A stretch of 64,000 bases of DNA from Mayamaea pseudoterrestris (Eukaryota). Made by a program: the position numbers and the translations under genes. The DNA is taken from positions 186,001-250,000 of the forward strand of contig BROI01000015.1 of assembly GCA_027923505.1 (NCBI GenBank), read 5' to 3'. The notes beneath the pieces are model-generated. The model was not told the DNA's origin and ran no database searches. It worked only from the letters and a program-made list of their open reading frames with translations. Positions 35,465-62,830 of this stretch are shown one piece after another (position 1 is the stretch's first letter; the number at the start of each line of letters is the position of its first letter).

Positions 35465-35879
35465 TTAGCTGGCCTATACTGCTTGCCGAAGTCGAGCAGA
35501 ATACCGTGTCGCATGGGGTTTGCTGGTGCCTGCGCCGCGCTGGCTGATGCGAAGCGTGCTTATTCGGTCTGACTCGAGTCAGATCGGTCCCTTCCCCCTG
35601 CCGCAAGGTGCAAATTCCGGCGCGCAAAACACGTTTTCGGTACAAGGCCTACACAAATTTCTACGCGGACAATGTGTCTCGGGACTCAATAACGGTCAAC
35701 GGATTACATCGGCATTGGACAAAGTACGACGCGCCGGTACTCCCGCAAGGAACGACACGGCAGGTGCTACACACTAACTGGGCATTATTGCATACTAGCT
35801 AACAGGCAGGCTTCTAAGCATATAATACAGCGTGACCCCTTCCAGATGCTGGACCTGCCCAACAGGTTGGTCATGTGCA

Positions 35880-38800: not shown

Positions 38801-39908
38801 ATCCTGTCATGTTGAGCGAAGCGAAGAAGCAGATTTTTGTGATGATTGTGATGCAGTGTCTGTATCTGAGTCAGCGAGCGCGACCGGATATTCGCACAGC
38901 GATTTCTTTCTTGAGCACGAGGCTGCAGCAGCCTGACGAAGACGACTATAAGAAGGCTGCAAGAGTGATTAAATATTTACGCGGAAGCGTGGACATGGTG
39001 TTGACGCTGAAGGCGGACCAGTCCGGGATAGTCCAGTGGTGGGTGGATGCGTCGTACGCGGTGCACCCAGACATGAAGGGTCACACTGGTGGAACAATGA
39101 CACTTGGCCAAGGATCAGTGTACAGTACGTCGGCTAAACAGAAGTTGGTAACAAGAAGCTCGACGGAGAGTGAAGTCGTGGGAGTTCACGATGTGCTACC
39201 GCAGTTGCTGTGGACAGGATATTTTCTGAAGGCGCAAGGTTTCGGGGTCAAGGACACGAAATTGTACCAAGACAATATGAGTTCAATGTTGTTGGAAAAG
39301 AATGGCAGAAGCTCAGTACAAAGCGCACGCGACACATGAATGTTCGGTACTTCTTGTGAAAGATCGCGTGGCAGCTGGTGAAGTCAACATTGAGCATTGT
39401 CCGACCGGAGACATGGTCGCGGATTTCTTCACGAAACCATTGCAGGGAGCCCAGTTTGGCAAGCTCCGCAACCTGGTTATGAATCTGGCCTCGAGCAGTA
39501 AGTACTACTTGGACCAAAGGAGTGTGTTGAGCATGGATGAGAACCCAAACCGAAGAGGCAGCGGTGACGTCACGAAGACGGTCACGGTTTAAGTAAGCGC
39601 GGTAAGCGGCAACCGAAGGAGTGGATCGAGGACGATCACTTCTTGGAGGACGGTTCCAGGTCTTTCAACGCGACCAGGCTTTTACGATGTGGATATCAAT
39701 TTGGATCTGAGGTGACGTGATTGGTTCGTTTCATCTTGCGCGGTGTAAAGTTACATCAAGCTATAGTTGTTGACAGGCTAACACATTCGCTGGGCAGAGT
39801 CAATGATTTTGCGCTTGCTCGCGCTAAACCTGCCAAACGTAACGAAATAGATTCAATAGCTAACACGATCGTGAGGATCGGCTAGCTGGGATCATTGCAT
39901 CGCCGAAC
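35880..39908 (+). mobile_element. Ty1/copia retrotransposon, 5'-truncated (no gag or 5' LTR seen), frameshifted
   Basis: PR LLDNQSTVDLF; IN LCADIMYINK...MDGEF...HVGEIER; RT DVPGAF, LYGTLRAARLFW, WHVDDLK; RH WVDASYAVH...RSSTESE; purine tract CAAAGGAGTG then TGTTGA at 39525 (putative 3' LTR, right end approximate). Confidence 0.92.
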
Positions 39909-41345: not shown

Positions 41346-41350
41346 CGTTT

Positions 41351-44300
41351 TGTAACTTGTAAATCAAATCGTTGCACCTTTCGCTTGTAGCTGTCGCTTT
41401 GGCCAATCAAGCTTACAGTTGCCTCAATACAACGAATAAATTTTCTTAACTCTTCAGCTTGTAAGTCTCTTGTTTCTCTCTATATCTTACTAGTTTCAGC
41501 AATATGCTCGTTGAATCGCTTGAGCCTCGCTGCCACGCATCACGCGATCGTGGGCTGTGGTGAGCCGCGAGTGCCGCTGTGTCACCCTATCGGACTTCGG
41601 TGTGACTTGCCCGATTTTCGCTGTTTTTCGTTCGCATCCTGCAGCTCCCTCCAAGTCGCCATCCTATAGTTCGATTCCTTGAGAGCAGGTTCTTTAAGTG
41701 CTTGCTTGCCGTAGCCCGTGGAAGAAACTTGGTAAGTACATCCGCCGGGTTTTGTCGTTCCCATGTGTGGTTGAAATTAATATTCCGCCGCAATCGCTTC
41801 GCGTCACGGTGAAATGCCAGTGCATTGTGTCCTTCCGTCAGACTAGTGCGGTAGGTTGCTGCTTTGCGTTACCGACTTGTTGTCTCCCAACATCCATGAG
41901 GTCCGTCGGCGGAACTCCCAGCATGCGTAGCGTGGCGACGATCCATGATCTGCTCGTGCTCACTCTCGCTGCTACAAACTCCGAGCCGTACGTCGCCGTC
42001 TCGATCGTCGCGTTTTCAAAACCAATCCGCTGTTCCATTCAACATTGTGCCCATCGCTGCCCGTCCCGTCGTGTAGTCGTGGTACAGGTTCGCATCTTCG
42101 ACGTTGACATTCGCACCGCCTTGCCGCGCGGCGTGGGGCATGTTCCACGGAAGCTCTTCGCGTCTTGCCGTCACCTGTTCCCCAATCCATCTTGTCAACT
42201 GTGCGTATCGCTCGTCCGTTGGAGTCGAGCGTTGAATCGAATCGCTCCATCCGGGTATCTTCGTAAGTATCCGCAAATATGCTTCAACCGTTCCAAGTGC
42301 CCCGCTCGTGGCGCAGCTTCGGAATCTCCCCATAGTCATGACAGGCACAGTGAATGTCAGTCGACATAAACTTACTCCATTGCCACGCACCAATTATCGA
42401 TTGATGCTTCCGCAATTCCGTCGTGTCAAGTTCTTTCGTTTCGTCGAGTTCCGGATGGTCGCCGTCGCGTCGTGGACTTGTCTGCGGTCGCGGTTCCTCG
42501 CCGAACATTTCTTTGTAGTTCGCTGTGTCTTGTGCGTGCTTCTTCGCTCCGAAGCAGAGTACGCCGTCGTCGTCTCGCCAAACGTCTGCGCTCCAAATGA
42601 TATGCCAATGGACCGGCGCCCTTCGCCGTTGTGTTCTCAATTAAAAAGATTCGTTGTTCCTTCCGGTTCTTCTCGCTTCGCTTCATCGTCGACATCACCG
42701 CGTTTCGTGTGCGTGCCTTTCTCGCGCATCCCACACGTCGGTTCTGCGATCCGGCGCCGTGAAGCCAATGTCGCGGAAGCGTGTCTGCAAAGTGCTCGTG
42801 CGCAGCGTGCCCTGGCGTGCGGCCGTATAATGCCTTCCGTCGTGCGTGTGCCCTCGGGCTCCCCGAACTCCGGACCTGCCCACGATATAAACCTTCTCTT
42901 TCGTTTTCGCTTCCAAGTTCGTTGCCGCGTCAGCTGCCCACAGTTCCACCGTGGTTCCGCTAACATCGCTACCATTCGTGGCTTCGCTATTGACACAGCG
43001 CCCGAGTAAGCTGAATCGCTTCGGCGGCTCTGTCATGTGTCCTCCTGCGACGAGTCGTGCTTTCCGTCGCATCGGGACATCGATCTGTGCGTTTATTCGT
43101 TTCTGGCACCGCCAACCTCACTCCTTGATCTCGAGCTGTCGTAATCCATTTATCTGATTTAATTCCGTTCGTCGCATCTCCACAGCGTGTTGCCGTTGAT
43201 CTCGTCGACTTTCGCATCTTTATAATTGCGCGGCAACCTTACGCCGAATTTGTAGCGTACGCCGTTTGCTTTCGTTTTCGTTTCGCCGCTGTTGCCATCT
43301 GTCGCTTCTTTCCTTCCAGTGTAATGCTCCGCTCTTCCATCCTGGCTTTGGTAGCCGTGCTCGGTGCTTCTCTGCGATCGTTATCGGATCGTCCTTCTTC
43401 TTGATCGCAGCTCCCACGTCGTCGTTCCGTCAGTCCATTCGACGAGAGCGTTGCTTGAACTTCCTTTGTATGTCGGATCGTTCGGTTTCAAATTAAGCTT
43501 CGTGTCCGATTCCTTGGCCACTGGTCGCCGGATCGTTTCGTTTCTTCGTCCATCTGTGTTCGATTAAATCCGGTCGTTGTACTTATTAGTCTTTCGCTGG
43601 CTCCTCTCCCATTTGGATTAGGAAACCTTTCGTCGTTTCGAGTAGCTCGTTTCGCGTACTTCGATATATTCGCATACAGTCGCTCGCATTTTCTGACCGT
43701 TTTCGTGTTCCCTCGAACGTTCGTCCGATGAGTTCGCTTGGAGAGAACAGGGGGCATTTATTCCCTGATTCTTGCTCGCCCTTCTGAAGAACTTCGCTGG
43801 TACGTGGCGTGGTTCGCCATCCTGTTTCGTCGTCGTTTCCTTCGTGTTGTCGTGACTACTTTCTGTCACATGCGTGCTATGGTAGCGTCCTGTCGCGAGA
43901 TCTGGAGTTTCAAAATTTCGCTCGCTTGCGCGTGTAGCTTCTTCAATCTCCTCAGACTCAGAAGGAAGGCAACTCTCGTGGTAACAAGTAGCTGCGCGAG
44001 ACCCGTGGGCCGCGGAATCGCCTGAACGTGTCGTCCGTCAGAGCGAGAAAAGTCATGTGCGGACCGCTCTTCTCTGCGATGCCCACGAATCGGCCGTTGC
44101 CAGTCGTCCCCGAACTCCCCTGCGCCTCAGCGTGCCGGTTCCCCCGAAATGCTACAAAGGCGAAATATCGGCAGATTTCCGACGCACTTCCGTTGGCGTC
44201 GCCATCCCAGCGATTTCGTCGCGAGGGCGTTCGAGTATCATGATTACGAATTTAATCAGCAAAACCCAGCAATGGCCTGGCGAGCCCGAATCTCGTTGGA

Positions 44301-47300
44301 GGTTCTCCATCATTGGCTTAATGTGCGACGTGTGACGTTCGCATGGATTTTTGTTCTGGATGACCCCCGGTTCTGCTTGGTCGCGAGGTTTGTCATCCGA
44401 CGAGATCCCTCACAGCCGCCGTCTCCGACTTGGCGTTGTCGCTGAGCAGTCCGTTAGGGCGCCCACTTCGCGGATAAAATCCTCTAACGCGTTTTGACAT
44501 TTCGCTCTCCGGCTTCATCGGGTAGCCGCGCGTGTAAAACTTTCTCGTCAACAAAGAGCTGCATCTTAGTCAGCTCCCCATGCCCTAAATTCCATCATCC
44601 AGCTGGCGTGTCAGAGTGTATCGTGTCCGTGGCGAATAGTTCGCGCAACCGCTGAACGTTCGCGGCCGGAATGTGATTTCGTGAGGTGTCGAAATGGTAA
44701 TCGCGGGTGTGCGCTGAGATGATACCATGCTTCCGTGTGACGTAAAGTCTGTTGAGCGCGCTCTCGGGTCATCCGTGCGGCCGAAGAGCGTTATGTCCGT
44801 TTCCTTGCTTCTTAGCTTCCGCCGATTAACGCGTGAAAGCTGGGCGTGTCGCCGCACCGATTGATCAGTGCGTCAGGTTCGTCGCCAGTGCGTGTCGGCG
44901 TGTGCCGTTGCGGTGCGTGTACCGTCATCATCGGATCGTTCGTCGAAGATCCATAATCATGTCGTTGTCGATCGTGTGCGCGTGCTCGACTCGTAAACAG
45001 TCGAGTCCCACGGCGTCCGACGTTGTGCGTCGGTACATCCGTTCGAACGTGGGTTTCGTCGTCCAAGTACACCAGGCCATCGCGAATTGCCAATGGCAAA
45101 ACGTAGCCTCATGTTCGTCGTATTCGTTGCGTTCCGCCAAACGTGGTCGGAATATCGTCGGCGCGATGTCCCATTCGCGCAATTGTTCGGGCAATGAATC
45201 GTCGGTCCGTCTCGCTTTAAAGCATACTGGTGACACAGAAGCAGAATGGTTTCGCCACTAAGTCTTTGCCAGTCCAGCTGCAGTGCCAATCTTCGAGCTG
45301 GGACAATATGATCGTCAATACCAGTCCATCCACCTCGGCGTTCGTTTCCGAAGCGGCGGCATTCTCCTCCGCAAAGCCTCCGTTCGCGCCGCTGTCGATG
45401 AGCGCGCCTTCGTTGATCCGCTCGTAGTGTGCGCGTTGGCGCGCATCCGACGATGCTGTTGAAGCTGAGTGTACCTCGTCGGTGTTATCGGTCGTCAACG
45501 ATCCTGTCACTTGCTGAGTTGTAGTACTCGCGTTGTTCCGCTTGCAGAGCCGTCGTGCAGCCGTTTGGACTGACATTCCACTATTGCCGGGCTGAATATT
45601 AATCGTGCCAGGAACGCTTGCGTGATCGTTCGCTACAGATTCCGTCGCGTGACGCTCTTGATGCGCCGCGTTGACTTGCGTCTGCGTCGTAGCCGTGCCT
45701 CGTTGGTTGCGCGGTCGCCATCCGTTTTCGGGTGTGCTTGGGCGCCGTCGCGCGCTTGTCCTTCAACTGCTTTCGCTGATCAAACTTCATCTCCAGCCAG
45801 ACTTCATCCTTCCGCTCGCGTGAGGTTTCTTCATGATCGCTGCCGTCGTTCCGCCGATAAGCCGCCCGAGTCGCGCCGCCATTGCCGCCGCCGCCTCCTT
45901 TCGTTCACTAGACTGCGCTTGATTGATTGTGCGCTTCGTCTTCGTCGTCGATGGGTGTTTCTTGTCATACTTGATGCAGCACTCTTCTAAGTGCGCGTAC
46001 AACTGCGCGAAATTGTCTTCCAGTCGTGTTGCCCCATGTGTTTCTTGATGGCAATCATTCCGTCAAAACCTGCTAGTGATGCGCTGAATCCTGTGTGCTC
46101 GGAGAAAGCGTCGCGTAGCATGTCGTATCGTTGTAAACCTGTCAGAGCTTCTGCGTCCATTTCCGAGCAGCCAGATGACTTTCTTGTAGAACAGTGCGAG
46201 AAATTCGATCGTCGGCCGTGACCACTTCTCGGTCAGCCGCATTCCCTGCAGTTCCGTTCGCGCGCGTTCCTTCTCGATGTGAGCAGTAGCGCCTTCTTCG
46301 TATCGCGTTCGCAATCGTTGGTAGACTTCGCGTCCGTCCATCGTCTTCTTGAACTGCTGTACTGCGAGTGATGCAGACGGAGTTCGACAGTGCGTGAGAA
46401 AGATCCTGTATACAAACACATTCTTCTTTGCATACGCCTTCTGTTCTTTCCGGTCCCTTTTCCTTCGGGTCATAATCGTCGTCAAAGACTTCGTGGAAGT
46501 CATGCAATGTAGCGATGACTTTCAACTCGGAAATCCACTGTTTCCACGAGGAATCCAGCTTCATTTCTTTACAATCCCTCGCCGAGAACTTGATAGACTT
46601 CGTAAATTGGTCTGAATACTTCTCGTCGTCTTCGTCGTCGCCGAGGTCCAGTACGGATGTCGGTGACTGCTTCGTGTCAACGTCCACACTCGTCGGTGGC
46701 ACCTTGTCGGCCGAGTCAGGCTTCGACTCGTTGCCTTCGTTCGTTAGCGTGAGTCCTGGATTCGTCCTTCTTGGATTCCGTTTCGCTTTCCTTCGCTGGA
46801 GGTTTCGCTCCGCTTCCGCTGCCCACGCTCGCAATGTTGCGCGCTTGGACTCGTTCCTTCGCTCGTGCTGTGACGAACGTCGCCAGCGTTTCGGTGGTCA
46901 GTTGCGACCATGTCTTGATGTCCGGCGACTCTTGCGCCAAATACCATTCGATCGCGTTCGTGATCGTGCGTTGTTTCATCTTCGTTAGCGAGTGTTCGCT
47001 CGTTTCCTGCGTGACATTGTCGCCATCGTCAGTCGTCGTCGTTGTCGTCGTCGTGACGTTCCACTTCGTCGCGAAATCGTCGTACTCCATCTCGATCAGT
47101 TGCGTAAGCGATTCTACTCCGAGTTCGTCGAATAACTCCTTGAACTGAGGATCTTGGAAAACGCCTACGTTCTCTTCGTAAACATGCGCAAACGCCGCGT
47201 CTTTCTGCGCGCGAGTTTCCGCCATCGTTGTCGTCGTGACAATGTTCTTGCTATCACCTGCGGAACTTTCCGGGCCAAGAACCAACGTGCGTCCACGTTA

Positions 47301-47686
47301 CTTCGTAAATCAATAGTACTCTTCGTCGATAAAGTCTCTATGCCGAGGCAATGAGTCTCAAGACAGTGTTAATCTTGTAACTTGTAAATCAAATCGTTGC
47401 ACCTTTCGCTTGTAGCTGTCCTTGGATGGCCAATCCAAGCTTGCAGTTGCTACAATACGAGAGACGAATAAATCGCTTTCTTAACTCTTCAAGCTTAGTA
47501 AGTCTGCTTGTTTCTACTCTATATCGCACTAGTTTCAGCAATATACTTGTTGAATCGCTTCGAAGCCGTCGCTGCCACGCATCACGCGATCGTGAGGCTG
47601 TGGTGAGCCGCGAGTGCCGCTGTGTCACCCTATCGGACATTCGGTGTGACTTGCCCGATTTTCGCTGTTTTCGTTCGCATCCTGCA
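41351..47686 (-). mobile_element. Full-span CoDi-like Ty1/copia element (family A), two LTRs, coding region riddled with indels
   Basis: LTRs 41351-41643 and 47376-47686 (minus strand TGCAGG...GTTACA); PPT GGAGGGAG; gag MAETRAQK at 47225; PR ALIDSGANGG; RT RRKARLVAGGHMT; RH ETATYGSEFVAAR, NPADVLTKFL. Confidence 0.93.
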
Positions 47687-47888
47687 AGGAACGTGCGTCC
47701 GATGAGTTCGCTTGGAGAGAACAGAGGGCATTTATTCCCTGATTCTTGCTCAGCCCTTCTGAAGAACTTCGCTGGTACGTTGGCGTGGTTCGCCATCGGA
47801 ATTGTTTCGTCGTCGTTTCCTTCGTAGTTGTCGTGACTACTTTCTGTCACATGCGTGCTATGGTAGCGTCCCTATCGAGAGATCTGGA
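47687..47888 (-). mobile_element. Internal fragment of a second family-A copy abutting the 5' LTR
   Basis: Near-duplicate of ~43714-43906 (GTCCGATGAGTTCGCTTGGAGAGAACAG...ATGGTAGCGTCC...GAGATCTGGA). Confidence 0.85.
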
Positions 47889-49165: not shown

Positions 49166-49878
49166 TAACACCGTTGACGATTTCGCAGTCAACGTCTTAC
49201 CTCCAAAAAGCTCCGATACAGGGTCCTTGGCCACGGTCTGTACAGCTCTTGATGGAGATGGCTCGTCGAATAGTCTTGCGCTCGCCACTACACGAATACG
49301 ACTGCACTCTCGTCGCAAACTAGTAGTTCTATATTGTGAGCTTATCGCTACATCGCTACATCGACCACTCGGAAGATCATCCGATCAATCCGTTTCTTTC
49401 AATCACATTACATCAGTCGTAACTGGTCGTTCCATTCGCCTACAACGCATCACACACGATTGGCGCAAAGACTTTCTTCATTCATGATGTCACATACGAC
49501 AGCTGCGGACTCGACACAAGCCTGAAATAGGGTTCGGGCTCTTGACTTCGCCGCTCTGCGACTTGTGTCCACTCCCTCGGGTACGCTGCTCTCGTCGTAG
49601 CCGCATTGTCCCTTCACAATCGCATACGATGTATCGCGCGCCAAAACAATACTGGCTTGAGCAATGGCATCGCATCACAGTACGGCGGTACTTCCGTCAG
49701 TACGGTCCGCAATGTTCTCCTTTCCGTCAATCTTCACAAACTTGATAATCCCCCGCAGCAACTGCCCAACGAACACGATGGTGAAGCCAACGCATTGTGT
49801 TGCTTGGACAATGTCGAACTCGGGATTGTAGATTGGTAATCACTGCTTGGTTGTCTCCTGTCATCCAGGCAGATTCTC
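49166..49878 (-). mobile_element. Truncated family-B copia: 3' LTR plus ~310 bp of RNase H end, embedded in satellite
   Basis: 49166-~49571 matches the LTR at 55575-55969; 49572-49878 matches 55970-~56278 with indels. Confidence 0.93.
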
Positions 49879-52800
49879 ATGACATTCAAACGCCCCTACA
49901 GCAAGCCCTGTAGGTGCCCAAATTACACCAGAATGGTGCCAACATCATTATTCAGGCAGCGCTACAAGATGGTAGGCTTGGCTAGTGTCTCAGGGGATGG
50001 CAATGTATTTGGTGACAACTTGTCATGCCATGACATTCAGACACACCTACAGCAGGCCCTGTAGGGGCCCAAATTACACCAGAATGGTGCCAACATCATT
50101 ATTCATGCTGCGCTACAAGATGGTAGGCTTGGCTGGTGTCTCAGGGGATGGCAATGCATTTGGTGACAACTTGTCACCAGTCTTAGCCAGAAGATGCCAT
50201 GACATTCAGACACCCCTACAGCAAGCCCTGTAGGTGCCCAAATTACACCAGAATGGTGCCAACATCATTATTGAGGCTGCGCTACAAGATGGTAGGCTTG
50301 GCTGGTGTCTCAGGGGATGGCAATGTATTTGGTGACAACTTGTCACCAGTCTCAGCCAAAGATGCCGTGACATTCAAACGCCCCAACCCTTGGCCAAACC
50401 GGGATACCAACATCATTTTTCAGGCGACGCTACAAGATGGTAGGGATGGCTGGTGTCTCAGGGGATGGCAATGTATTTGGTGACAACTTGTCACCAGCCT
50501 CAGCCCGCAGATGCCGTGACATTCAAACGCCCCTACAGCAAGACCTGTAGGTGCCCAAATTACACCTGAATGGTGCCAACATCATTATACAGTCTGCGCT
50601 ACAAGATGGTAGGCTTGGCTGGTGTCTCAGGGGATGGCAATGTATTTGGTGACAACTTGTCACCAATCTCAGCCCGCAGATGCCGGGACATTCAAACGCC
50701 CCTACAGCAAGACCTGTAGGCGCCCAAATTACACCAGAATGGTGCCAACATCATTATACAGGCTGCGCTACAAGATGGTATGCTTGGCTGGTGTCTCAGG
50801 GGATGGCAATGTATTTGGTGACATCTTGTCACCAGTCCCCAGCCGCGCTGCCAACATAAGCCTACAGCAAGCCGCGGGCCCAAATTACACCAGAATGGTG
50901 CCAACATCATTATTCAGGCTGCGCTGCAAAAGGTAGGCCTGGCTGGCCAGGGATGTAGTTGGTGACAACTTGTCACCAATCTCAGCCCCCAGATGCCGTG
51001 ACATTCAAACGCCCCTACAGCAAGCCCTGTAGGTTGCCAAATTACACCAGAATGGTGCCAACATCATTATTCAGGCTGCGCTACAAGATGGTAGGCTTGG
51101 CTGGTGTCTCAGGGGATGGCAATGTATTTGGTGACAACTTGTCACCAGTCTCAGCCCGCAGATGCCATGACATTCAAACACCCCTACAGCAAGCCCTGTG
51201 GGTGCCCAAAATACTCCAGAATCGTGCCAACGTCATTATTCAGGCTATGCTACAAGATGGTAGGCTTGGCTGGTGTCTCAGGGGATGGCAATGTATTTGG
51301 TGACAACTTGTCACCGGCTGAGACATTCAAACGCCCCTACAGCAAGCCCTGTAGGTGCCCAAAATACACCAAATTGGTGTCAACATCATTATTCAGGCTG
51401 CGCTACAAGATGGTAGGCTTGGCTGGTGTCTCAGGGGATGGCAATGTATTTGGTGACAACTTGTCACCAATCTCAGCCCGCAGATGCCGGACGAATTCAA
51501 ACGCCCCTACAGCAGGCGGACCTGTAGGTGCCCAAAATACACCAGAATGGTGCCAACATCATTATTCAGGCTGCGCTACAAGATGGTAGGCTTGGCTGGT
51601 GTCTCAGGGGATGGCAATGTATTTGGTGACAACTTGTCACCAGTCTCAGCCCGCAGATGCCGTGACATTCAAACGCCCCTACAGCAAGCCCTGTAGGTGC
51701 CCAAAATACACCAGAATGGTGCCAACATCATTATTCAGGCTGCGCTACAGGAGGTAAGCCTTGGCTGGTGTCTCAGGGGATGGCAATGTATTTGGTGACA
51801 ACTTGTCACCAGTCTCAGCCCCCAGAAGCCGGGACATTCAAACGCCCCTACGGCAACCCCTGTAGGTGCCCAAAATACACCAGAATGGTGCCAACATCAT
51901 TATTGAGGCTGCGCTACAAGATGGTAGGCTTGGCTGGTGTCTCAGGGGATGGCAATGTATTTGGTGACAACTTGTCACCAGTCTCAGCCCGCAGATGCCG
52001 TGACATTCAAACACCCATACAGCAAGCCCTGTAGGTGCCTTAAATACACCAGAATGGCGCCCACATCATTTCTTTAGGCTGCGCTACAAAATGGTAGGCT
52101 TAGCTGGTGTCTCAGGGGATGGCAATGTATTTGGTGACAACTTGTCACCAGTCTCAGCCCACAGATGCCATGACATTCAAACGCCCCTACAGCAAGCCCT
52201 GTAGGTGCCCAAAATACACCAGAATGGTGCCAACATCATTATTCAGGCTGCGCTACAAGATGGTAGGCTTGGCTGGTGTCTCGATGGGACGGAATGTTTT
52301 GGTGACAACTTGTCACCAGTCTCAGCCCGCAGATGCGTGACATTCAAACGCCCCTACAGCAAGGCCCAGTAGGTGCCCTACACCAGAATGGTGCCAACAT
52401 CATTATTTAGGCTGCGCTACAAGATGGTATGCTTGGCTGGTGTCTCAGGGGATGGCAATGTATTTGGTGACAACTTGTCACCAGTCTCAGCCCGCAGATG
52501 CCGTGACATTCAAACACCCCTACAGCCAGCCCTGTAGGTGCCCAAAATACACCAGAATGGTGCCAACATCATTATTCCGGCTGCGCTACAAGATGGTAGG
52601 CTTGGCTGGTGTCTCAGGGGATGGCAATGTATTTGGTGACAACTTGTCACCAGTCTCAGCCCGCAGATGCCGTGACATTCAAATGCCCCCTACAGCAAGC
52701 CCTGTAGGGGCTCAAATTACACCAGAATGGTGCCAACATCATTTTTCAGTCTGCGCTACAAGATGGTAGGCTTGGCTGGTGTCTCAGGGGATGGCAATGT

Positions 52801-54860
52801 ATTTGGTGACAACTTGTCACCAGTCTCAGCCCGCAGATGCCGTGACATTCAAACACCCCTACAGCCAGCCCTGCAGGTGCCCAAATTACTCCAGGATGGT
52901 GCCAACATCATTATTCCGGCTGCACTACACGATGGTAGGCTTGGCTGGTGTCTCAGGGGATGGCAATGTATTTGGTGACAACTTGTCACCAGTCTCAGCC
53001 AGCAGATGCCGCGACATTCAAACACCCCTACAGCAAGCCCTGTAGGGGCTCAAATTACACCAGAATGGTGCCAACATCCTTATTCAGGCTGCGCTACAAG
53101 ATGGTAGACTTGGCTGGTGTCTCAGGGGATGGCAATGTATTTGGTGACAACTTGTCACCAGTCTCAGCCAGCAGATGCTGGAACATTCAAATGCCCCTAC
53201 AGCAAGCCCTGTAGGGGCCCAAACTACACGAGAATATGCCAACATCATTCTTCAGTCTGCGCTACAAGATGGTAGGCTTGGCTGGTGTCTCAGGGGATGG
53301 CAATGTATTTGGTGACAACTTGTCACCAGTCTCAGCCCGCAGATGCCGTGACATTCAAACACCCCTACAGCCAGCCCTGCAGGTGCCCAAATTACTCCAG
53401 GATGGTGCCAACATCATTATTCCGGCTGCACTACATGATGGTAGGCTTGGCTGGTGTCTCAGGGGATGGCAATGTATTTGGTGACAACTTGTCACCAGTT
53501 TCAGCCAGCAGATGCTGGAACATTCAAATGCCCCTACAGCAAGCCCTGTAGGGGCCCAAATTACACCGGAATGGTGCCAACATCCTTATTCAGGCTGCGC
53601 TACAAGATGGTAGGCTTGGCTGGTGTCTCAGGGGATGGCAATGTATTTGGTGACAACTTGTCACCAGTCTCAGCCAGCAGATGCTGGAACATTCAAATGC
53701 CCCTACAGCAAGCCCTGTATACACCCAAATTACACCAGAATGGTGCCAACAATCAGCCGCCGAATTGGACGCCAGCAGCCACCAAGCCCGCCAAATACCC
53801 AGAATGAACCAACATCATTAATCAAGCTGTGCTACAAGATGGTCAGCTTGGCTGGTTTCTCAGGGGATGGCAATGTATTTGGTGACAACTTGTCACCAGT
53901 CTCAACCCGCAGATGCCGTGACATTCAAACGCCCCTACAGCGAGCCCTGTAGGAGCCCAAAATACACCAGAATGGTGCCAACATCATTATTCAAGCTGCG
54001 CTACAAGATGGTAGGCTTGGCTGGTGTCTCAGGGGATGGCAATGTATTTGGTGACAACTTGTCACCAATCTCAGCCACAGATGCCATGACATTCAAACGC
54101 CCCTACAGCAAGCCCTGTAGGTGCCAAAACTACACCAGAATAGTGCCAACATCATTATTCATGCTGCGCTACAAGATGGTAGGCTTGGCTGGTGTCTCAG
54201 GGGACGGCAATGTATTTGGTGACAACTTGTCACCAGTCTCAGCCCGCAGATGCCGTGACATTCAAACACCCCTACAGCAAGCCCTGTAGGTGCCCAAATT
54301 ACACCAGAATGGTGCCAACATCATTATTCAGGCTGCGCTACAAAATGGTAGGCTTGGCTGGTGTCTCAGGAGATATCAATGTATTTGGTGACAACTTATC
54401 ACCAGCAGATGCCATGACATTCAAATGCCCCTACAGCAAGCCCTGTAGGTGCCCAAAATACACCAGAATGGTGCCAACATCATTATTCAGCCTGCGCTAC
54501 TAGATGGTAGGCTTGGCTGGTGTCTCAGGGGATGGCAATGTATTTGGTGACAACTTGTCACCAGTCTCAGCCCGCAGACGCTGTGACATTCAAACGCCCC
54601 CTACAGCAAGCCCTGTAGGTGCCCAACATACACCCGAATGGTACCAACATTATTATTCAGGCTGCGCTACAAGATGGTAGGCTTGGCTGGTGTCTCAGGG
54701 GATGGCAATGTATTTGGTGACAACTTGTCACCAGTCTCAGCCCGCAGATGCCGTGACATTCAAACGCCCCTACAGCAAGCCCTGTAGGTGCCCAAAATAC
54801 ACCAGAATGGTGCCAACATCATTAATCAGGCTGCGCTACAAGATGGTAGGCTTGGTTGGT
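49879..54860. repeat. 169-bp satellite block 3 (~30 monomers, highly homogeneous)
   Basis: Consensus TGACATTCAAACGCCCCTACAGCAAGCCCTGTAGGTGCCCAAATTACACCAGAATGGTGCCAACATCATTATTCAGGCTGCGCTACAAGATGGTAGGCTTGGCTGGTGTCTCAGGGGATGGCAATGTATTTGGTGACAACTTGTCACCAGTCTCAGCCCGCAGATGCCG; e.g. 53285, 53454, 53623. Confidence 0.98.
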
Positions 54861-55054
54861 GTCGGCAACGTCTGTCAATCAACCGAAGCGCGCAAGGCTT
54901 CAATCGGACCACTGATGGTGCCCAAAGACACCAGAAGTGCCAACAACTTTTTCGCCTCCGCCAGCGTAGGCTTGGCTGGTCGAGCCCAGGGCGTTTGGGA
55001 CATCACCAGTCTGAGGACGCTGCTGCCGTGACAATCAAACATACCCGGCACGCC

Positions 55055-55572
55055 TGTAGCGTTACATCAATTGTCGCCATGGTGGAGGTTGATCAGAGGA
55101 ATCGGACTCGCTGCAGACGAATGTGTCACAATAGCTCCCTCGCTCGTTCTTGCTCTCGAAGCACTGAAATGTTAATCTAACACCGTTGACGATTTCGCAG
55201 TCAACGTCTTACCTCCAAAAAGCTCCGATACAGGGTCCTTGGCCACGGTCTGTACAGCTCTTGATGGAGATGGCTCGTCGAATAGTCTTGCGCTCGCCAC
55301 TACACGAATACGACTGCACTCTCGTCGCAAACTAGTAGTTCTATATTGTGAGCTTATCGCTACATCGCTACATCGACCACTCGGAAGATCATCCGATCAA
55401 TCCGTTTCTTTCAATCACATTACATCAGTCGTAACTGGTCGTTCCATTCATACAACGCATCCACACGACGGTTGCGCACTTTCTTCATTCACATGTCACA
55501 TACGACAGCTGCGGACTCGACACAAGCTAATTAGGGTTCGGGCTCTTGACTTCGCCGCTCTGCGACTTGTCA
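55055..55572 (-). mobile_element. Partial tandem copy of family-B copia: complete 395-bp LTR (55178-55572), leader and gag start
   Basis: LTR matches 55575-55969; 55055-55177 matches 61761-61885 with a few differences. Confidence 0.93.
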
Positions 55573-55574
55573 CT

Positions 55575-58500
55575 TAACACCGTTGACGATTTCGCAGTCA
55601 ACGTCTTACCTCCAAAAAGCTCCGATACAGGGTCCTTGGCCACGGTCTGTACAGCTCTTGATGGAGATGGCTCGTCGAATAGTCTTGCGCTCGCCACTAC
55701 ACGAATACGACTGCACTCTCGTCGCAAACTAGTAGTTCTATATTGTGAGCTTATCGCTACATCGCTACATCGACCACTCGGAAGATCATCCGATCAATCC
55801 GTTTCTTTCAATCACATTACATCAGTCGTAACTGGTCGTTCCATTCATACAACGCATCCACACGACGGTTGCGCACTTTCTTCATTCACATGTCACATAC
55901 GACAGCTGCGGACTCGACACAAGCTAATTAGGGTTCGGGCTCTTGACTTCGCCGCTCTGCGACTTGTCACTCCCCTCGGGTACGCTGCTCGTCGTAGCCG
56001 CATTCTTGTCCTTCACAATCGCATACGATGTATCGCCGCGCCAAAACAATACTGGCTTGAGCAATGGCATCGCATCACAGTACGGCAGGTACTTCGTCAG
56101 TACGTCCGCAATGTTCTCCTTTCCGTCAATCTTCACAAACTTGATAATCCCCGCAGCAACTGCCCAACGAACACGATGGTAGGCCAACGCATTGTGTCGC
56201 TTGGACAATGTCGAACTCGGGATTGTAGATTGCGTAATCACTGCTTGGTTGTCTCCGTACATCCAGGCAGACTTCTCCAATGGTACGCCCATAGCCATGA
56301 GCGACGCGCGTAGAGAAATGCTGATATCCGTTCCACTCTTTGCTACGCCGAATTCCGATCCGAAGGTCGCAGTCTCGACTGTAGCCTGGAGTTTGCAATG
56401 CCAGTCGACAGGCGTCTGGTTGACAAATGACAAAACTCCTTCCAATGACTTGCCTGTCACCATGCAATGCATGAGACACGCATCCTCGAAAGTTGATGTT
56501 CGTACAGTCACACCCTTTGGCGGTGGGTAGACGTCCAACATCTCATCAACTCCGTCCTTCCCGTAAACGCTGCGCTCCCAATCTTGTTCCTCCATGGTGC
56601 CGAAGTGCTCCTCGTTGGCTGGCCACTTCGTACGGAAACGGATTGCTGCGTCCGGTAACTCTCGCAAATATCCACAGACTCGCTTCACCCGCTGCAGGTG
56701 TCCCTTGCGCGGCTCCACACGGAATCGCGACAGACTCACAACTGCTACGGCAATGTCAAATCGTCCCAAAGTAATCGCCCACTGAAGTGCTCCGACTAGA
56801 GACTGGTAAATCTTCTTCTCTTGGTCGTTCAGTAGCTCGCTTTGGTCAAGTTCTGGATGATCGTCTTTGTCGATTGGTGATGAGTACTTCTTCGGAGGAC
56901 CTTCAAACAAACGCTCGTACTGCGCCAAGAGTTTCGCAACGTAGGTCTTGGCCGACCAGTAAAGAGTTCCGTCAGGGTCTCGTCCAAAGTCACCGCCGAG
57001 ATGATACTCGGGATGTCCAACACCTTTGAGCTTAAACTTGTACTTCTCCTCTAGCATCTTGAAGAACGCTGCTGGATCGTCTGAAATATTCAACAGATCG
57101 TCGACCCATACACAGAGGTAGTCGTAGCTGTCGCCGGCGTCCTTGATCCACAGATCGGAATCGCAATAGGACGGCTTCCACCCTTCCGCAAGTAGGGCGT
57201 CGGCTAAGCGTTCGTGAAATCGTGCTCCGCTCGTTCGCAATCCGTACAAAGCCTTGACGATGACCAGGATGTGTCCTTCGCGCTCCCCGAACTCGGGGCC
57301 TCCAACGAAGTATACCTTCTCCTTGGTGAACGCTTCGAGATAAGCATTCCCAATGTCACCGACCATGCACTTCTTGCCGTTCGCTTCTCCAATGACGAGA
57401 GCTAGACGCATTGCCTTCAATGAGATAACACTGGAGTAGGCATCGTCGTTGTCTTTCGTCATGTGGCCGCCTGCAACGAGACGTGCCTTGTATCGCAAAT
57501 CGTGCTTGACATCGTACACAAAATGGACTCGGATCTTTTGGTAACCAGTTGGTGGTGCTGTGGTGGAACTCGGACCAAGATCTTGAAACGTCTCGTACTC
57601 GTCCAGGTTCGCAAGCTCCACGCCTTCCGCATCCGTCCACTTCGTGTGCCCTGCAGCTTCCTGCAAACGTCGCGCTTCCTTCCAATCTCGGGGTACTTGG
57701 ACTCCAAACTTGTAGCGCGGTCCGTTCTTCTGCTGCTCCATTCGGGCGATCGCCACCTTGCGCGCAACCTTCTTGGCGTTCCGGGCCCATCGATTCAACG
57801 ATGCCCATCCGTCCTTGTCGAGAAGATTATGCTTTTGCGCGTAGGCTGCCACTGATACTTTGTCGCTTTCGATCATCGCGTTGAGAGGCTCCCAAGTCTT
57901 GGATCCATCGTCCCATTGTACAAGGACGTTCCACTTGGAGTGCTTCCAGTTCTTCGACTTGCTCGTCAGCGGACCCTGATGGTCTAGAATCTCCTTGAAG
58001 AACCATTTACGCTCAGGATTCGCCATGTCTTGGTTCACTTCGGCCTCGTAGAGATCGGAAACCTCGACATAGGACATGACTTCGTCCGCTTCGCCGTTAC
58101 CAAGCTTCAGCATCATTTTAATGTTCTGATGGTTCTGGGCGTCGCGGTTGTTCAGCTTGCTCATGACGGTCGCTCGAACTTCTTGCCCGTCGTCCGTCTT
58201 CATGAGAAACGACTTGCCGATAAGTTCATCGGGTGCATACTTCGGAAGTTTGCGCCACGGATTGATGTTCTTCTTCTTCGGCTTGTCGTCGTCGTCATCG
58301 GCAGGATTAGGATCTAGCTCCCCGTCGGTCATATCGTCGTCTTCCGGGTATTCCACCGTCTCGACCAAAGGGGTATCGTCTTCGTCAGGAATGAAAGAAT
58401 CATCGTCTCTGCTGTCGGCGTCGGTAATCTTCTTGATCATTTCCGGCATAAGGATCTCGCCACCTAGACCAGGTACGGTATAGAGACGCGGCTCCCCTTC

Positions 58501-61500
58501 TTTCATGACTGGGGAAGCAGGTGCCGGTACGCGAAGGTTCAAAAATTTTGGGTCGTTTCGGGGTAAGCAAACCGATCGCGTCATGATCTCGTGGGTCTCG
58601 CAATCGCAGATGAAGTACGTCAGGTCGTCTCCGCACGTCGTGTTGGGACCAAGCCAGTACGCCGCGCGCTGGCGGGTACCCGGGGCCTCGACATCCTTGA
58701 CAAAGTAGTTGACAATTTCAAACCAACGAAAATGCAAATACTTCGACACGTCGGGGACTTGCCCAGTGATAAACTCGATGGGAGACTTGCCGTCCAAGGC
58801 AGGATGCGACAAATGACGGTACATCTCGGTCTGAAAGAGTAAAGCGCGTAGCCAGAAGCATGCCGGAGTGCCCGTTCGGTCCATAAGTCGTTCATGACTT
58901 TCCTTTACGTGCCCGATGATGCGCTCGGCTGGATTTTGATTCTGGTAGTACGGCTCCGATGTATGACGACGGCGAATCATGAACTCGCGCATTACTTCGT
59001 CAAACTCGGCACTCATCGCTTCTTTCGCATTATCCGAGAAGACTTCCAACGGAGCTCCAAACTCGCGGATGAAATCACGGAATCGTTTCGGTACGTCACC
59101 TTTCGTCCGCATGGGATACACGACAATGATCTGACTGCGACAACCATAGAATAGCTGCACGCATGTGCACCCTGCATGTCCGTCGATATGATCATCCATG
59201 GCTGGTTCGTCGAAGAACATGGTGTCATGGGCCACTCGATCATCTAGACGGTAGACGTTCAGGAATCGGCTCTTTCGATGCATTCGTGGGGGGTATCGGC
59301 GCTCGTGCATGTTGAACTGCGTGCTGTGGCGCAAAGTATCCTTGATCGTCTGCGCCGGGTACCATGCAAAGTTCGGCAGCAATGCGTCGATATCAGGTTT
59401 CTTTGGCAGGATAGACTTGTAGGGCTGATAGACGAGATCCGCATTGTACTTCTGTACGACGGCACAAACATTCAGCTCCTTCTCGGTGTAAACAGGTTGA
59501 TTGTCGTGTCCGAGATTCGTATAAGTCACGTTGCTCTGACGATGGGTGCGATTCCGCGTACGCGAACGTGTCACGCGCGTGAAGCCCTCTTCGTCGTCAC
59601 TGTCTTCGTCGTCTTCGTCGCGCGACAACAAGTCCGGTACGTCGTCCTCGTCGTCATCGTCATCCGAAGAGTCATAGTCGTCGTCCTCGGTCGGCTCGAC
59701 GTCAAACTCATTCGGATCCCAAGGTCCATCGAAGGTCATCATGACCCGAGGTAAGGTGTGAAGCTCATGCGCCGACACTGGAAACATTGGCAAGGTCGCC
59801 ATGCCACTTTCCATTCCGAGCATAAACTTGTATCCATCTGGCGTTTCGATTCGTAACTTGCCACCAAAGTTGTAATGCTTGTCGTTGACATGAAGTCCGA
59901 AGGCTTCCATCTGCATACTCGAATGAATCGTCTTGCCGGTTCCAGAATATGCGTAATTATGGAACTCGCCGACGACCCAACCCTTGGTGCTCTTAAGCTT
60001 GGCGACTGCTGTGACGGTAGACAGGTCCGGAAGTTTGAGACCACCGACTCCAGTGACTTCAATCTTGTGGAACTTGTCCTCGGTAAGGATGCGGCCGTCC
60101 GCTCCCCATACTCCGCCACTCGCGCCGCGATCGACAGTCGACGCTGAATGCTTATCCAAGTCAATGCTCGCGACTTTGTACTTGCGACTCTGAGCAATAT
60201 TTGCTCCCCGAGTCGTAGTCGTGGGCTGGTCTGGACCTAAGAAACTTCGCATCGCTGAGCCACGGCTGGTGTTGTTCACACGCTCGGTCGCCGCACTCGC
60301 CGTCGTTGCCGCTGATGAAGTGGCTGCGACGTTCGCGTTGCGTGTTGTACTCGTCGTCTGCGTGGTGCCTGCCTGTGTTGCTGATGTCGAACCACCTGCA
60401 GCACTGGCCGCTCGACTCGTACCACGGCGTTCAAACACTTCGTGTTGCTGATCGCGGGTAAGGAGTCGCCACGTGTTTGGTGGAATCGTCGCATTCACGT
60501 CGCTGGGAATTTCGATCGTCTTCGTGTCGGCATAGCTGCGAACATACGAACGAGTATCTCCCCGACCGCGGCCGCCGCCGCCGCCTCGTCCCGTGCTCAA
60601 GTCGCCGCGACCACCGCCCCCCTGATTGGATTGCTGATTGTTGCTGCTACTTGGCGTAGACTGGGAATTGTTCGCGCTTGCCTTCTTCGTCTTCTCCTTC
60701 TCTTTCTTGGTTTGCTCAGATTGGTTCGCCTGGCGCTTCTCGGTCTCCTTGATGCCACGACGATTGTCAGATTGACGTGCGACGTCGTTCAGGAGGTTCC
60801 AAAACTGGGTGTACGTCATCGGGTTGCCGGTCTTGGACTCTTCGATCAGCGCCATGTTCACCGCCGCTGCCATATCCGCATGGCGGAAAACCGCGCGCTC
60901 CAAAATCTGACGCTTCGTGCTTGCTGTAAGTAGCTCGGTTTCCTCGGCGTAGTCATTGTAGTTCTCTTCCTTGCTGGACCACTGGATAAGCCAATTGACG
61001 AGAGACTTGGCGTAACTCGCGTCGAGAGTGAAATTGCGCCATTCGTCTTCGGCCGAACGTAGATCCAACTTGCGCGCCATCCCGTCGAGGAATGTCGCCT
61101 CCAACTCTGCAATGCACGCTGAGGCATTCGCGCTGTCGATGTGCTTGCGGACAATGAGCTTGCTCTGCGGTGTCTTGCAGGTATACTCGAGCGCCGCTAA
61201 AAGCTTCGAACACTGATACTGATACTCGGCGAATTCGGGCTCGAGTGCAGCTGGTGCCTTGAACTCGTCGTCCCAAAAGTAGCCAAGTCGCTCGCTTCGC
61301 ATGCGGTTCTTGAAGGCCCGCCAGTAGGAGCAGAACTTGCGATCGTTCTTGAGCTCCAGCATGGTCTTCAGATCCAGCTTGATGTCGTGTCGCTTCGTCG
61401 TGGTGTCGTTGCCTCCGATAACGCTAAAGTCTCCGAAACTGCGGTTGCCTGCTGTCGGTGACCCCGGCGCTACTGGGAGGTCTCGGCTCGTAATCTGGTC

Positions 61501-62204
61501 TTTCTCCAAGTCTTGCCATTGCGCAGTCGTCCGACGTTGCTCGTGAATCCAACTCATGAGCTTGCGCAATCGGCTTGTTCGTATCGTCGACCACTGGTAC
61601 TGGGTCTTAATGTTCGTCACGTCTTGTTCCGACAGTTCGGCCATCGCCTCCGCAGTCGTGAGTTCCTCTTGCTCGAAACACACTGCGGTAGGGTCGTTTG
61701 GATCCCAAGCTGCGGACGCTGCGAGCCACGGAATATCGAAGACTTTACCGACGGCACGCTTGTAGGTCGTTACATCAATCGTCGTCATGGTGGAGGTTGA
61801 TCAGAGGAATCGGACTCGCTGCAGACGAATGTGTCACGATAGCTCCCTCGCTCGTTCTCGCTCTCGAAGCACTGAAATGTTAATCTAACACCGTTGACGA
61901 TTTCGCAGTCAACGTCTTACCTCCAAAAAGCTCCGATACAGGGTCCTTGGCCACGGTCTGTACAGCTCTTGATGGAGATGGCTCGTCGAATAGTCTTGCG
62001 CTCGCCACTACACGAATACGACTGCACTCTCGTCGCAAACTAGTAGTTCTATATTGTGAGCTTATCGCTACATCGCTACATCGACCACTCGGAAGATCAT
62101 CCGATCAATCCGTTTCTTTCAATCACATTACATCAGTCGTAACTGGTCGTTCCATTCATACAACGCATCCACACGACGGTTGCGCACTTTCTTCATTCAC
62201 ATGT
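55575..62204 (-). mobile_element. Coding-intact CoDi-like Ty1/copia element (family B); 3' LTR 55575-55969, 5' LTR 61886-62204 (outer ~76 bp missing)
   Basis: Matching LTRs, PPT GAGGGGAG at 55970-55977 (minus strand), single long ORF. Confidence 0.97.
55924..61788 (-). CDS. Gag-Pol polyprotein, 1954 aa (Gag-PR-IN-chromo-like-RT-RNase H)
   Basis: PR TVDRGASGG; IN VAHDTM / FSDNAKE / NQNPAER (DDE); RT YKARLVAGGH, DIGNAYLEA, KALYGL, VWVDDLL; RH FEDA, ETATFGSE, GDNQAV, NIADVLTK; stop codon lies inside the 3' LTR. Confidence 0.98.
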   Translation of the reverse strand: MTTIDVTTYKRAVGKVFDIPWLAASAAWDPNDPTAVCFEQEELTTAEAMAELSEQDVTNIKTQYQWSTIRTSRLRKLMSWIHEQRRTTAQWQDLEKDQITSRDLPVAPGSPTAGNRSFGDFSVIGGNDTTTKRHDIKLDLKTMLELKNDRKFCSYWRAFKNRMRSERLGYFWDDEFKAPAALEPEFAEYQYQCSKLLAALEYTCKTPQSKLIVRKHIDSANASACIAELEATFLDGMARKLDLRSAEDEWRNFTLDASYAKSLVNWLIQWSSKEENYNDYAEETELLTASTKRQILERAVFRHADMAAAVNMALIEESKTGNPMTYTQFWNLLNDVARQSDNRRGIKETEKRQANQSEQTKKEKEKTKKASANNSQSTPSSSNNQQSNQGGGGRGDLSTGRGGGGGRGRGDTRSYVRSYADTKTIEIPSDVNATIPPNTWRLLTRDQQHEVFERRGTSRAASAAGGSTSATQAGTTQTTSTTRNANVAATSSAATTASAATERVNNTSRGSAMRSFLGPDQPTTTTRGANIAQSRKYKVASIDLDKHSASTVDRGASGGVWGADGRILTEDKFHKIEVTGVGGLKLPDLSTVTAVAKLKSTKGWVVGEFHNYAYSGTGKTIHSSMQMEAFGLHVNDKHYNFGGKLRIETPDGYKFMLGMESGMATLPMFPVSAHELHTLPRVMMTFDGPWDPNEFDVEPTEDDDYDSSDDDDDEDDVPDLLSRDEDDEDSDDEEGFTRVTRSRTRNRTHRQSNVTYTNLGHDNQPVYTEKELNVCAVVQKYNADLVYQPYKSILPKKPDIDALLPNFAWYPAQTIKDTLRHSTQFNMHERRYPPRMHRKSRFLNVYRLDDRVAHDTMFFDEPAMDDHIDGHAGCTCVQLFYGCRSQIIVVYPMRTKGDVPKRFRDFIREFGAPLEVFSDNAKEAMSAEFDEVMREFMIRRRHTSEPYYQNQNPAERIIGHVKESHERLMDRTGTPACFWLRALLFQTEMYRHLSHPALDGKSPIEFITGQVPDVSKYLHFRWFEIVNYFVKDVEAPGTRQRAAYWLGPNTTCGDDLTYFICDCETHEIMTRSVCLPRNDPKFLNLRVPAPASPVMKEGEPRLYTVPGLGGEILMPEMIKKITDADSRDDDSFIPDEDDTPLVETVEYPEDDDMTDGELDPNPADDDDDKPKKKNINPWRKLPKYAPDELIGKSFLMKTDDGQEVRATVMSKLNNRDAQNHQNIKMMLKLGNGEADEVMSYVEVSDLYEAEVNQDMANPERKWFFKEILDHQGPLTSKSKNWKHSKWNVLVQWDDGSKTWEPLNAMIESDKVSVAAYAQKHNLLDKDGWASLNRWARNAKKVARKVAIARMEQQKNGPRYKFGVQVPRDWKEARRLQEAAGHTKWTDAEGVELANLDEYETFQDLGPSSTTAPPTGYQKIRVHFVYDVKHDLRYKARLVAGGHMTKDNDDAYSSVISLKAMRLALVIGEANGKKCMVGDIGNAYLEAFTKEKVYFVGGPEFGEREGHILVIVKALYGLRTSGARFHERLADALLAEGWKPSYCDSDLWIKDAGDSYDYLCVWVDDLLNISDDPAAFFKMLEEKYKFKLKGVGHPEYHLGGDFGRDPDGTLYWSAKTYVAKLLAQYERLFEGPPKKYSSPIDKDDHPELDQSELLNDQEKKIYQSLVGALQWAITLGRFDIAVAVVSLSRFRVEPRKGHLQRVKRVCGYLRELPDAAIRFRTKWPANEEHFGTMEEQDWERSVYGKDGVDEMLDVYPPPKGVTVRTSTFEDACLMHCMVTGKSLEGVLSFVNQTPVDWHCKLQATVETATFGSEFGVAKSGTDISISLRASLMAMGVPLEKSAWMYGDNQAVITQSTIPSSTLSKRHNALAYHRVRWAVAAGIIKFVKIDGKENIADVLTKYLPYCDAMPLLKPVLFWRGDTSYAIVKDKNAATTSSVPEGSDKSQSGEVKSPNPN

Positions 62205-62830
62205 AAGAAGCCCCCCCACAAAAGTACAGAACGCACCGCTTCCAGGTAGGTGTTACCGACATTGGCAGCCCAAAACTTAAGGTCGTTCAGTTCAGCTAAC
62301 AAAGCTATAGTTCGGATGCTTTGCATAGAGACAACACCGGAGTAGGCAGAGTCCTTGGGCGGAGTGGTTGAATGTCCCCCAGTGATGAGTCCGGCCTTAC
62401 GTTGTAGGTCGTTCTTGCAGTCAAAGACAAGATGCGCGTTGATGCGTTTCCAATCACTTTCCATGAAGGCACCAATGCCCCTGTCAATGAAAGTGTCATA
62501 CTTGTGTAGCTGCTCCATCTCAGTCTTGATGGCGTCAGCCCATAGTGTGTTTCCATTAGCAGCGTCAAGGTTGCTTGCTTCCTTCCAAGTATTAGGAACT
62601 TGAACGCCAAACTTATAAGGTGCTTCTTGGACATGGTTCTTCTTTGCAGCCTTGTACATGCGGTTAAACAGTTTAGTGCATCCTGCCATGTGCTTCAAGC
62701 GCTTCCATCCAGCCTTGTCCAACATACCCTTGTGCTTGCTGTACTCGGCAACGGTGACAGGGTCAGACTTTACAATCAGTGCGAGTGGTTCCCAGGTCTT
62801 CTTGCCATTTGCCCATTTGACACGATGCAG
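62205..62830 (-). pseudogene. Decayed fragment of another CoDi-like copia (chromo-like end plus RT start)
   Basis: VKWANGKKTWEPL, YKFGVQVP, LVFDCKNDLQRKAGLITGGH, NVGNTYLEA. Confidence 0.88.

Follow-up and report, generated by a model that had tools for sequence, protein, structure and literature searches.

Chromodomain-guided integration is well known for the chromoviruses of the Ty3/gypsy group. For Ty1/copia elements, chromodomain targeting rests on one sequence comparison from 2009, which has since been cited and for which no test was found in the literature searched. That comparison (Llorens et al. 2009, PMC2774666) describes CoDi-A copia elements from Phaeodactylum tricornutum and Thalassiosira pseudonana whose integrase bears a putative chromodomain at its C-terminus, and suggests that this domain was acquired independently of the gypsy chromoviruses; its supplement 3 gives 'Chromo Yes' for CoDi2.4, 3.1, 4.1, 4.3, 4.4, 4.5 and 7.1, and reports for CoDi-A zero CCHC arrays and a protease 'LPIV' motif in five of the seven elements listed. 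CoDi-A corresponds to CoDiI in Maumus et al. 2009 (PMC2806351), and Ustyantsev et al. 2017 (PMC5348765) cite the chromodomain as 'Ty1/Copia CoDi-I'; the word 'chromodomain' is absent from Maumus et al. 2009, from PMC8147415 and from a 2025 preprint. Here we analyzed 64,000 nt of Mayamaea pseudoterrestris (GCA_027923505.1, contig BROI01000015.1, positions 186,001-250,000, forward strand), hereafter the window, which supplies a full-length, apparently young copy of a copia element with a chromodomain-like domain between its integrase and its reverse transcriptase (RT). A preliminary description of this DNA had pointed to the domain and cautioned about its novelty, rightly so, as seven CoDi-A elements of two diatoms were already listed with a chromodomain in PMC2774666. 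The finding is therefore a confirmation and not a discovery, since a chromodomain in diatom copia was printed in 2009; the results also show that the domain belongs to a larger two-domain module.

The element and the parts of its polyprotein, designated P0001, are as follows.

55046..62204, minus strand: whole Ty1/copia element with both long terminal repeats (LTRs) and an internal tandem duplication of 397 bp (LTR alignments)
55924..61800, minus strand: stop-free frame of 1958 residues encoding P0001, with gag, protease, integrase, module, RT and RNase H (open reading frame translation)
58801..59250, minus strand: integrase catalytic core, residues ~851-1000 (DDE-type motifs read from the sequence)
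58234..58500, minus strand: length-variable acidic linker, residues 1101-1189 (comparison with 10 relatives)
58021..58233, minus strand: predicted SH3/Tudor-like beta-barrel with C-terminal helix, residues 1190-1260 (AlphaFold2 model, VIA-align)
57796..58020, minus strand: predicted chromodomain-fold domain, residues 1261-1335, which includes 57830-58010 (AlphaFold2 models, VIA-align)
57691..57795, minus strand: basic helix and fixed-length link to the RT N-terminus, residues 1336-1370 (K/R-rich, length comparison)
56917..57552, minus strand: reverse transcriptase RVT_2, residues 1417-1628 (Pfam, E 9.1e-21)

Alignment of the two LTRs (55046-55496 and 61752-62204) gave 98.5% identity, and the LTR stretch 55575-55893 is 100% identical to 61886-62204 over 319 bases, from which we conclude that the intact element is young. 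As read from the sequence, P0001 runs in the order gag, protease (DRGASG at residue 557, LPMF at 670-673), DDE integrase core, integrase C-terminal region (extending to about residue 1100), acidic linker, module, RT and RNase H. RVT_2 is the sole Pfam match over the whole of P0001, and one relative gave a weak rve match. A regular expression found no CCHC zinc knuckle in the gag part, and a simple one found no HHCC zinc-finger pattern upstream of the integrase core (residues 761-850, 59251-59520).

The motifs WFFKEILDH (from residue 1266, window position 58005) and TWEPLNAM (from residue 1302, position 57897) lie in one stop-free minus-strand frame, between the DDE core (~850-1000) and RVT_2 (1417-1628). 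The frame, the residue positions, the DDE core and RVT_2 together bear out the earlier placement of a chromodomain-like motif between the integrase and RT of a copia polyprotein. A conserved module of two domains (P0001 residues 1190-1345, 156 residues, numbered 1-156 below) has the motif region as its second half, the barrel coming first and the chromodomain-fold domain after it; the upstream barrel and the coupling to the RT side had been missed by the preliminary description.

An AlphaFold2 model of the module, built on an alignment of 42 sequences, has a mean predicted local distance difference test score (pLDDT) of 90.0 and a predicted template modelling score of 0.63, the relative orientation of the two domains being uncertain. 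Residues 1-71 form four strands and a helix, and residues 79-134 form three strands and then helices; DSSP on the models assigned the strands to 79-86, 102-107 and 112-116 and the helices to 117-123, 125-134 and 144-152. The predicted second domain, which reached a pLDDT of 87.2 when folded alone, thereby has the three-stranded antiparallel sheet and C-terminal helix of chromo-like folds. When it was compared alone with 48,161 representative solved chains by VIA-align, 21 chains matched at Z of at least 5, every one of them carrying a chromo or chromoshadow domain, and unrelated proteins appeared from about Z 3. The 21 chains include Chd1, HP1, Rhino, Chp1, cpSRP43, CHD4, SUV39H1 and GEN-1, the last of which we take to carry a chromodomain; the chromo-type matches had Z 5.1-6.7 and a root-mean-square deviation of 1.1-4.1 Å over 42-73 residues. 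Searching with the two-domain model gave, for residues 74-139, the HP1alpha chromoshadow domain (Z 6.7), Chd1 (6.6), CHD4 (6.3), the dHP1 chromodomain (6.0), Chp1 (5.9), SUV39H1 (5.6), Rhino (5.3) and Polycomb (4.9). Because the list of strong matches is exclusively chromo or chromoshadow, and this for a domain of about 60 residues, the second domain very probably has the chromodomain fold, as judged from predicted models. The claim that the segment is a chromodomain thus stood as to the predicted fold, all 21 chains being of the chromo or chromoshadow kind, and did not stand as to the Pfam profile, as PF00385 gave no match to the segment and membership of that family was not found.

For residues 1-70, the same two-domain search returned SH3-like barrels, Tudor, chromo-barrel, KOW, CAP-Gly and de novo SH3 folds, tied at Z 4.6-6.2. 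The upstream barrel has four strands and a helix, as against the five-stranded SH3-like Tudor and chromo-barrel folds, and its Y55 is aromatic in 38 of the 42 sequences. With Foldseek, the two-domain model was closest to cpSRP43 (tandem chromodomains 2-3, E 7.1e-3); the tandem Tudor readers SETDB1, BAHCC1 and Spindlin came next, and there was no match at E ≤ 0.001. In a language-model look-up the PF00385 clusters came first (0.78-0.79), which we treat as a lead only. Homodimer prediction of the chromo-like domain returned a score of 0.00 and a mark of 0.32. The only match among PDB sequences, an NKG2-D chain (E 2.4 with the segment, 0.053 with the profile), was judged to be due to chance.

Relatives of residues 1190-1345 were sought among 1.84 billion representative proteins. 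At least 1308 clusters were found at E ≤ 1e-3, of which 483 also passed E ≤ 1e-10 and 23 passed E ≤ 1e-30, and the majority of the matches span the entire 156 residues. Identity to 10 full-length relatives amounts to 38-81% over the chromo-like part, where just two of them show gaps (2 and 9 positions), to 34-86% over the integrase core (86% for two close relatives, 34-48% for eight distant ones) and to 43-85% over RT, while it is 16-63% over the acidic linker before the module, with 7-58 gapped positions. As the module is conserved like the integrase core and RT while the linker is gappy, we regard it as a folded, constrained domain and not as linker; with 1308 relatives at E ≤ 1e-3 and conservation equal to that of the integrase core, it is not a product of chance. 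Within the 42-sequence alignment, W107 is invariant (42/42), and H85, G87, P88, E115, P116, L117 and Y131 are each conserved in at least 90%. A KPKKK patch before the barrel was considered as a nuclear localization signal and set aside, as it is not conserved in the relatives.

Among 14 other relatives, 9 have RVT_2 after the module and no other Pfam domain family recurs, and for 18 long relatives PF07727 is the only precomputed Pfam family in 16, with none in the other two. The module is restricted here to copia polyproteins. Organism names were attached to 2 of the 20 clusters looked up, both diatoms (Amphora coffeiformis and Fistulifera solaris). Pfam misses the domain, which is widespread in environmental protein data. 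A metagenome scan for related loci with a single protein gave one short, poor locus, and none was found by the scan among viral contigs. One environmental protein of 461 residues (P0002) contains two near-identical module copies in tandem, each followed by an RT start, and probably represents a tandem or misassembled element.

The likeness to CoDi-A lies in the copia gene order, the lack of a CCHC array in gag, the LP-type protease motif, the lack of a GPY/F motif, the chromodomain-like domain after the integrase and the relatives named as diatoms; copia order, absence of GPY/F and zero CCHC arrays, which characterize CoDi-A, were all found in P0001. The differences are that LPMF of P0001 is similar but not identical to LPIV, and that the upstream barrel, structural evidence and a spread over 1308 clusters are not described for CoDi-A in the accessible text of that comparison. 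On these sequence features the element is probably a Ty1/copia of the diatom CoDi-A/CoDiI type, and the chromo domain of the module is likely to be the printed CoDi-A chromodomain, to which the listed features liken it.

Chromodomains at the integrase C-terminus of chromoviruses have been divided into groups I and II, with a CR motif besides, a division reportedly treated by Gao et al. 2008 as well as by Weber et al. 2013. In PMC3605345, group II chromodomains lack the first and third aromatics of the methyl-lysine cage. The element resembles the chromoviruses in having a chromodomain-fold domain after an integrase and an SH3-like barrel, and divergent cage variants occur in chromoviruses too. 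It differs from them in its RVT_2, in having the integrase before RT, in the absence of GPY/F and in the position of the domain in mid-Pol directly before RT; moreover, by alignment register it appears to keep cage positions 1 and 2 and to have lost the third, unlike group I or group II. Neither a gypsy RT, nor the order protease, RT, RNase H, integrase, nor GPY/F was found, so that the element is not a chromovirus, although it may work like one; the chromodomain was probably acquired independently of the chromoviruses. Another copia lineage with a host-type chromatin-reader domain is found among arthropod Copia elements, which took over a methyl-CpG-binding domain whose binding was shown experimentally (de Mendoza et al. 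2019, PMC6673714); that domain reads DNA methylation, whereas here a chromo fold is concerned that is known from predicted structure. The tandem Royal-family readers (cpSRP43 CD2-CD3, CHD1, SETDB1, BAHCC1) likewise consist of two small barrel or chromo units in tandem, but the TM-scores are low (0.24-0.27), the orientation is uncertain and there is no sequence similarity.

The module occurs three times in the window. A regular expression for the W...TWE pattern, run over all six frames, matched at exactly three sites, all on the minus strand (57889-57921, 62789-62821 and 43411-43443), and a profile of the 156-residue module (hmmsearch) found the same three, the full module scoring E 3.4e-64 in the frame 55927-61800. 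The further features concerned are these.

62672..62824, minus strand: partial module within a decayed copia fragment (62159-62929), covering the second half of the chromo-like domain (hmmsearch E 5e-18, profile positions 104-154)
43223..44037, minus strand: module copy of family A, split over three frames (hmmsearch, profile positions 12-39, 88-115 and 121-145)
41350..47686, minus strand: older copia element 'family A', with LTRs 41350-41643 and 47375-47686 that are 90.8% identical and coding matches at 41683-45408
35826..39592, plus strand: copia remnant lacking the module, its integrase-like and RT parts separated by an acidic low-complexity linker; an LTR pair was not found
34535-35132, at the gene/repeat border: 176-bp tandem array, 3.4 copies with 89% matches, whose consensus differs from the 169-bp satellite
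49869..54863, plus strand: main block of the 169-bp satellite, with further blocks at 40151-41343 and 48330-49165

The decayed fragment is 40.7% identical to P0001 residues 1294-1501 (tblastn), and in family A only the middle piece of the module is significant (E 2.6e-8), the outer pieces being weak (E 0.25 and 0.89). Both scans thus agree with the earlier report that the motif recurs in family A and in the decayed fragment, both copies being decayed, and the plus-strand copia remnant (35.8-39.6 kb), described as motif-free, gave no profile match to the module. Reported to sit at the edge of the domain, this remnant also lies inside the repeat block, between the 176-bp array and the 169-bp satellite. 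The window opens with about 34 kb of ordinary genes (asparagine synthase, Na/H exchanger, Kelch protein and JmjC protein), in which no transposon of either kind was found, and the repeat block follows, with copia pieces lying between satellite arrays. All three module copies are in this satellite/transposon block and none is in the 34-kb gene region. On its left the intact element adjoins the main satellite block through one degenerate monomer (54864-55045), and on its other side it adjoins an older copia fragment. An origin of the satellite from the LTR was considered and set aside: when two satellite monomers were compared with the window (word size 11), they matched in the arrays only; a local alignment of the satellite reaches weakly about 30 bases into the LTR end.

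The explanation that we favor combines a two-domain module, an SH3/Tudor-like barrel with a divergent chromodomain-fold domain, in a young CoDi-A/CoDiI-type copia with a tethering mechanism, and as a whole we rate it slightly short of an even chance. By analogy with the Ty3/gypsy chromoviruses, the module would remain on the integrase C-terminus after translation, would read a methylated histone tail and would tether the integration complex to silent chromatin, and new copies would then accumulate in repeat-rich, gene-poor DNA such as the satellite block. Taken alone, a role of the module as a chromatin tether for integration is an analogy we hold tentatively, with somewhat more doubt than belief. 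If true, this role would account for the avoidance of the very gene-dense parts of these small genomes by diatom copia elements. A more far-reaching version is unlikely: here the barrel and the chromodomain would together make an uncharacterized chromatin reader of two domains, taken up separately from the gypsy chromoviruses and retained across a very large marine (diatom) copia clade, and would steer integration into satellite marked by H3K9me or H3K27me. Were it true, such 'copia chromoviruses' would contribute to building and renewing the heterochromatin blocks that satellites and transposons form on diatom chromosomes. That the module specifically recognizes this satellite, again judged by analogy, seems quite improbable. 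The preliminary description had taken the module to be what directs these elements to the satellite block, and for this claim nothing in the window gave support.

Results of several kinds weigh against the favored explanation. Pfam found no Chromo in P0001 and nothing at all at E ≤ 10 in pieces of 201 and 80 residues. For the 42 aligned relatives, PF00385 was not among the best 25 of 29 families at E ≤ 1, the four remaining families being able to match one alignment member at most. PF00385 was likewise absent from 14 further relatives (E ≤ 0.01), in 9 of which RVT_2 was the sole retroelement family, and from the precomputed Pfam families of the 18 long relatives, and a profile search of PDB sequences with the 42 sequences returned no chromodomain at E ≤ 10. 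Structural scores are modest, since the Foldseek E values for the domain alone were weak (0.2-0.8; 26-27 chromo-type and 11 STING among the 44 matches listed, E 0.23-0.81), no VIA-align Z reached 8, and chromoshadow domains scored as high as chromodomains. The cage, too, may be incomplete. According to Weber et al. 2013 (PMC3605345), HP1-type readers have a cage of three aromatics, Y, W and Y. With the register of these positions set by where the aligned ranges begin (model residue 75 to dHP1 residue 22, model residue 74 to Polycomb residue 23), W77 falls at the first position (aromatic in 34/42) and W107 at the second (aromatic in 42/42), and the third is Gly in 37/42, within a shortened loop. 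This loop is shorter than that of HP1. The beta1-beta2 loop is longer and has conserved aromatics at 96 (37/42) and 101 (41/42), which, on the sequences, might substitute for the third cage residue. The window itself gives no insertion-site contrast, because both kinds of copia, the module-less one included, are in the block, and because no target-site duplication was found at the intact element or family A, the two LTR-paired elements; the lack of these duplications means that the present flanks are products of rearrangement. Finally, after protease cleavage the module may belong to RT and not to the integrase, as suggested by its fixed-length link to RT versus the hypervariable linker to the integrase, and the side of the cleavage on which it ends matters for the targeting idea.

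This last point is the core of another explanation, in which cleavage within the variable acidic linker would leave barrel, chromo-like domain and basic helix as a nucleic-acid-binding N-terminal extension of RT-RNase H that clamps template or cDNA and has no role in the choice of integration sites. The position of the module is fixed, some 70 residues ahead of the RT domain, and eight of the 10 relatives have the same spacing from it to the conserved YKFGV..PR at the RT start; of the other two, one carries a 1-residue insertion and the second departs further. A K/R-rich helix makes this connection, while the stretch leading to the integrase differs by tens of residues among the 10 relatives. 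Chromo-like folds can bind RNA or DNA, Sso7d-type barrels bind DNA, and the barrel of the module also matches KOW and SH3-like nucleic-acid binders. In Ty1 and Ty5, it is a long disordered integrase tail that carries the targeting function. With the domain assigned to the integrase C-terminus by Llorens et al. 2009, we consider an RT extension of this kind improbable. The tie between chromoshadow domains and chromodomains raises a further alternative. Chromoshadow domains do not read histones and serve in peptide binding and dimerization, and Ty5 integrase docks onto Sir4. The module could accordingly be a protein-protein module for self-association of Pol or integrase, or for docking on a host HP1-like factor, that reads no histone mark. 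Chromoshadow domains of HP1alpha, Rhino and Chp2 are near the top of the matches (Z 6.7, 5.9 and 5.8 with the two-domain model; 6.1, 6.0 and 5.5 with the domain alone), the helices after the sheet are arranged as in chromoshadow domains, and the Gly at the third cage position fits as well. By the register given above, two of the three cage positions nevertheless keep their aromatics, canonical chromodomains follow within 1 Z unit, which is a tie, and no partner is known, so that we regard this alternative, too, as unlikely.

The distribution of the elements, as distinct from the nature of the module, has an explanation that needs no targeting, and to this we give an even chance: selection removes insertions from gene-dense DNA, repeats tolerate them, and elements accumulate passively in the satellite block. 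Module-bearing and module-less copia are both in the block with none in the 34-kb gene region, and the block is heavily rearranged, with nested fragments, a partial LTR and no target-site duplications; selection against genic insertions explains the picture in the window equally well as targeting does. Passive accumulation is compatible with every other reading considered here, but it leaves the constraint on a folded 156-residue module in more than 1300 clusters unexplained.

The 3' end of the intact element contains a perfect 397-bp tandem duplication (55178-55971), the unit of which consists of the final 78 bp preceding the LTR and LTR positions 135-453. All seven differences between the two LTRs fall within LTR positions 1-132 (55046-55177). 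Homology of the LTR regions continues for about 9-10 bases beyond the TG...CA end (55046-55055 and 61752-61761), and a primer-site-like string is therefore present after the 3' LTR too. The long frame has its first ATG (61788) within the alignment of the 5' LTR.

Alone within the satellite lies a 726-bp piece of the same family (49164-49889), which comprises the end of the open reading frame and LTR positions 133-448 and is 96.6% identical. It breaks off at LTR position 133, in agreement with the duplication breakpoint at 135 in the intact element; the piece might be a fragment of a transcript end or of cDNA captured at a break, with position ~134 as the end of R. Directly beyond the 5' LTR of family A, a 200-bp copy (47689-47888, 93.5%) of the family A internal region 43715-43906 suggests either another, fragmentary element of family A or a rearrangement.

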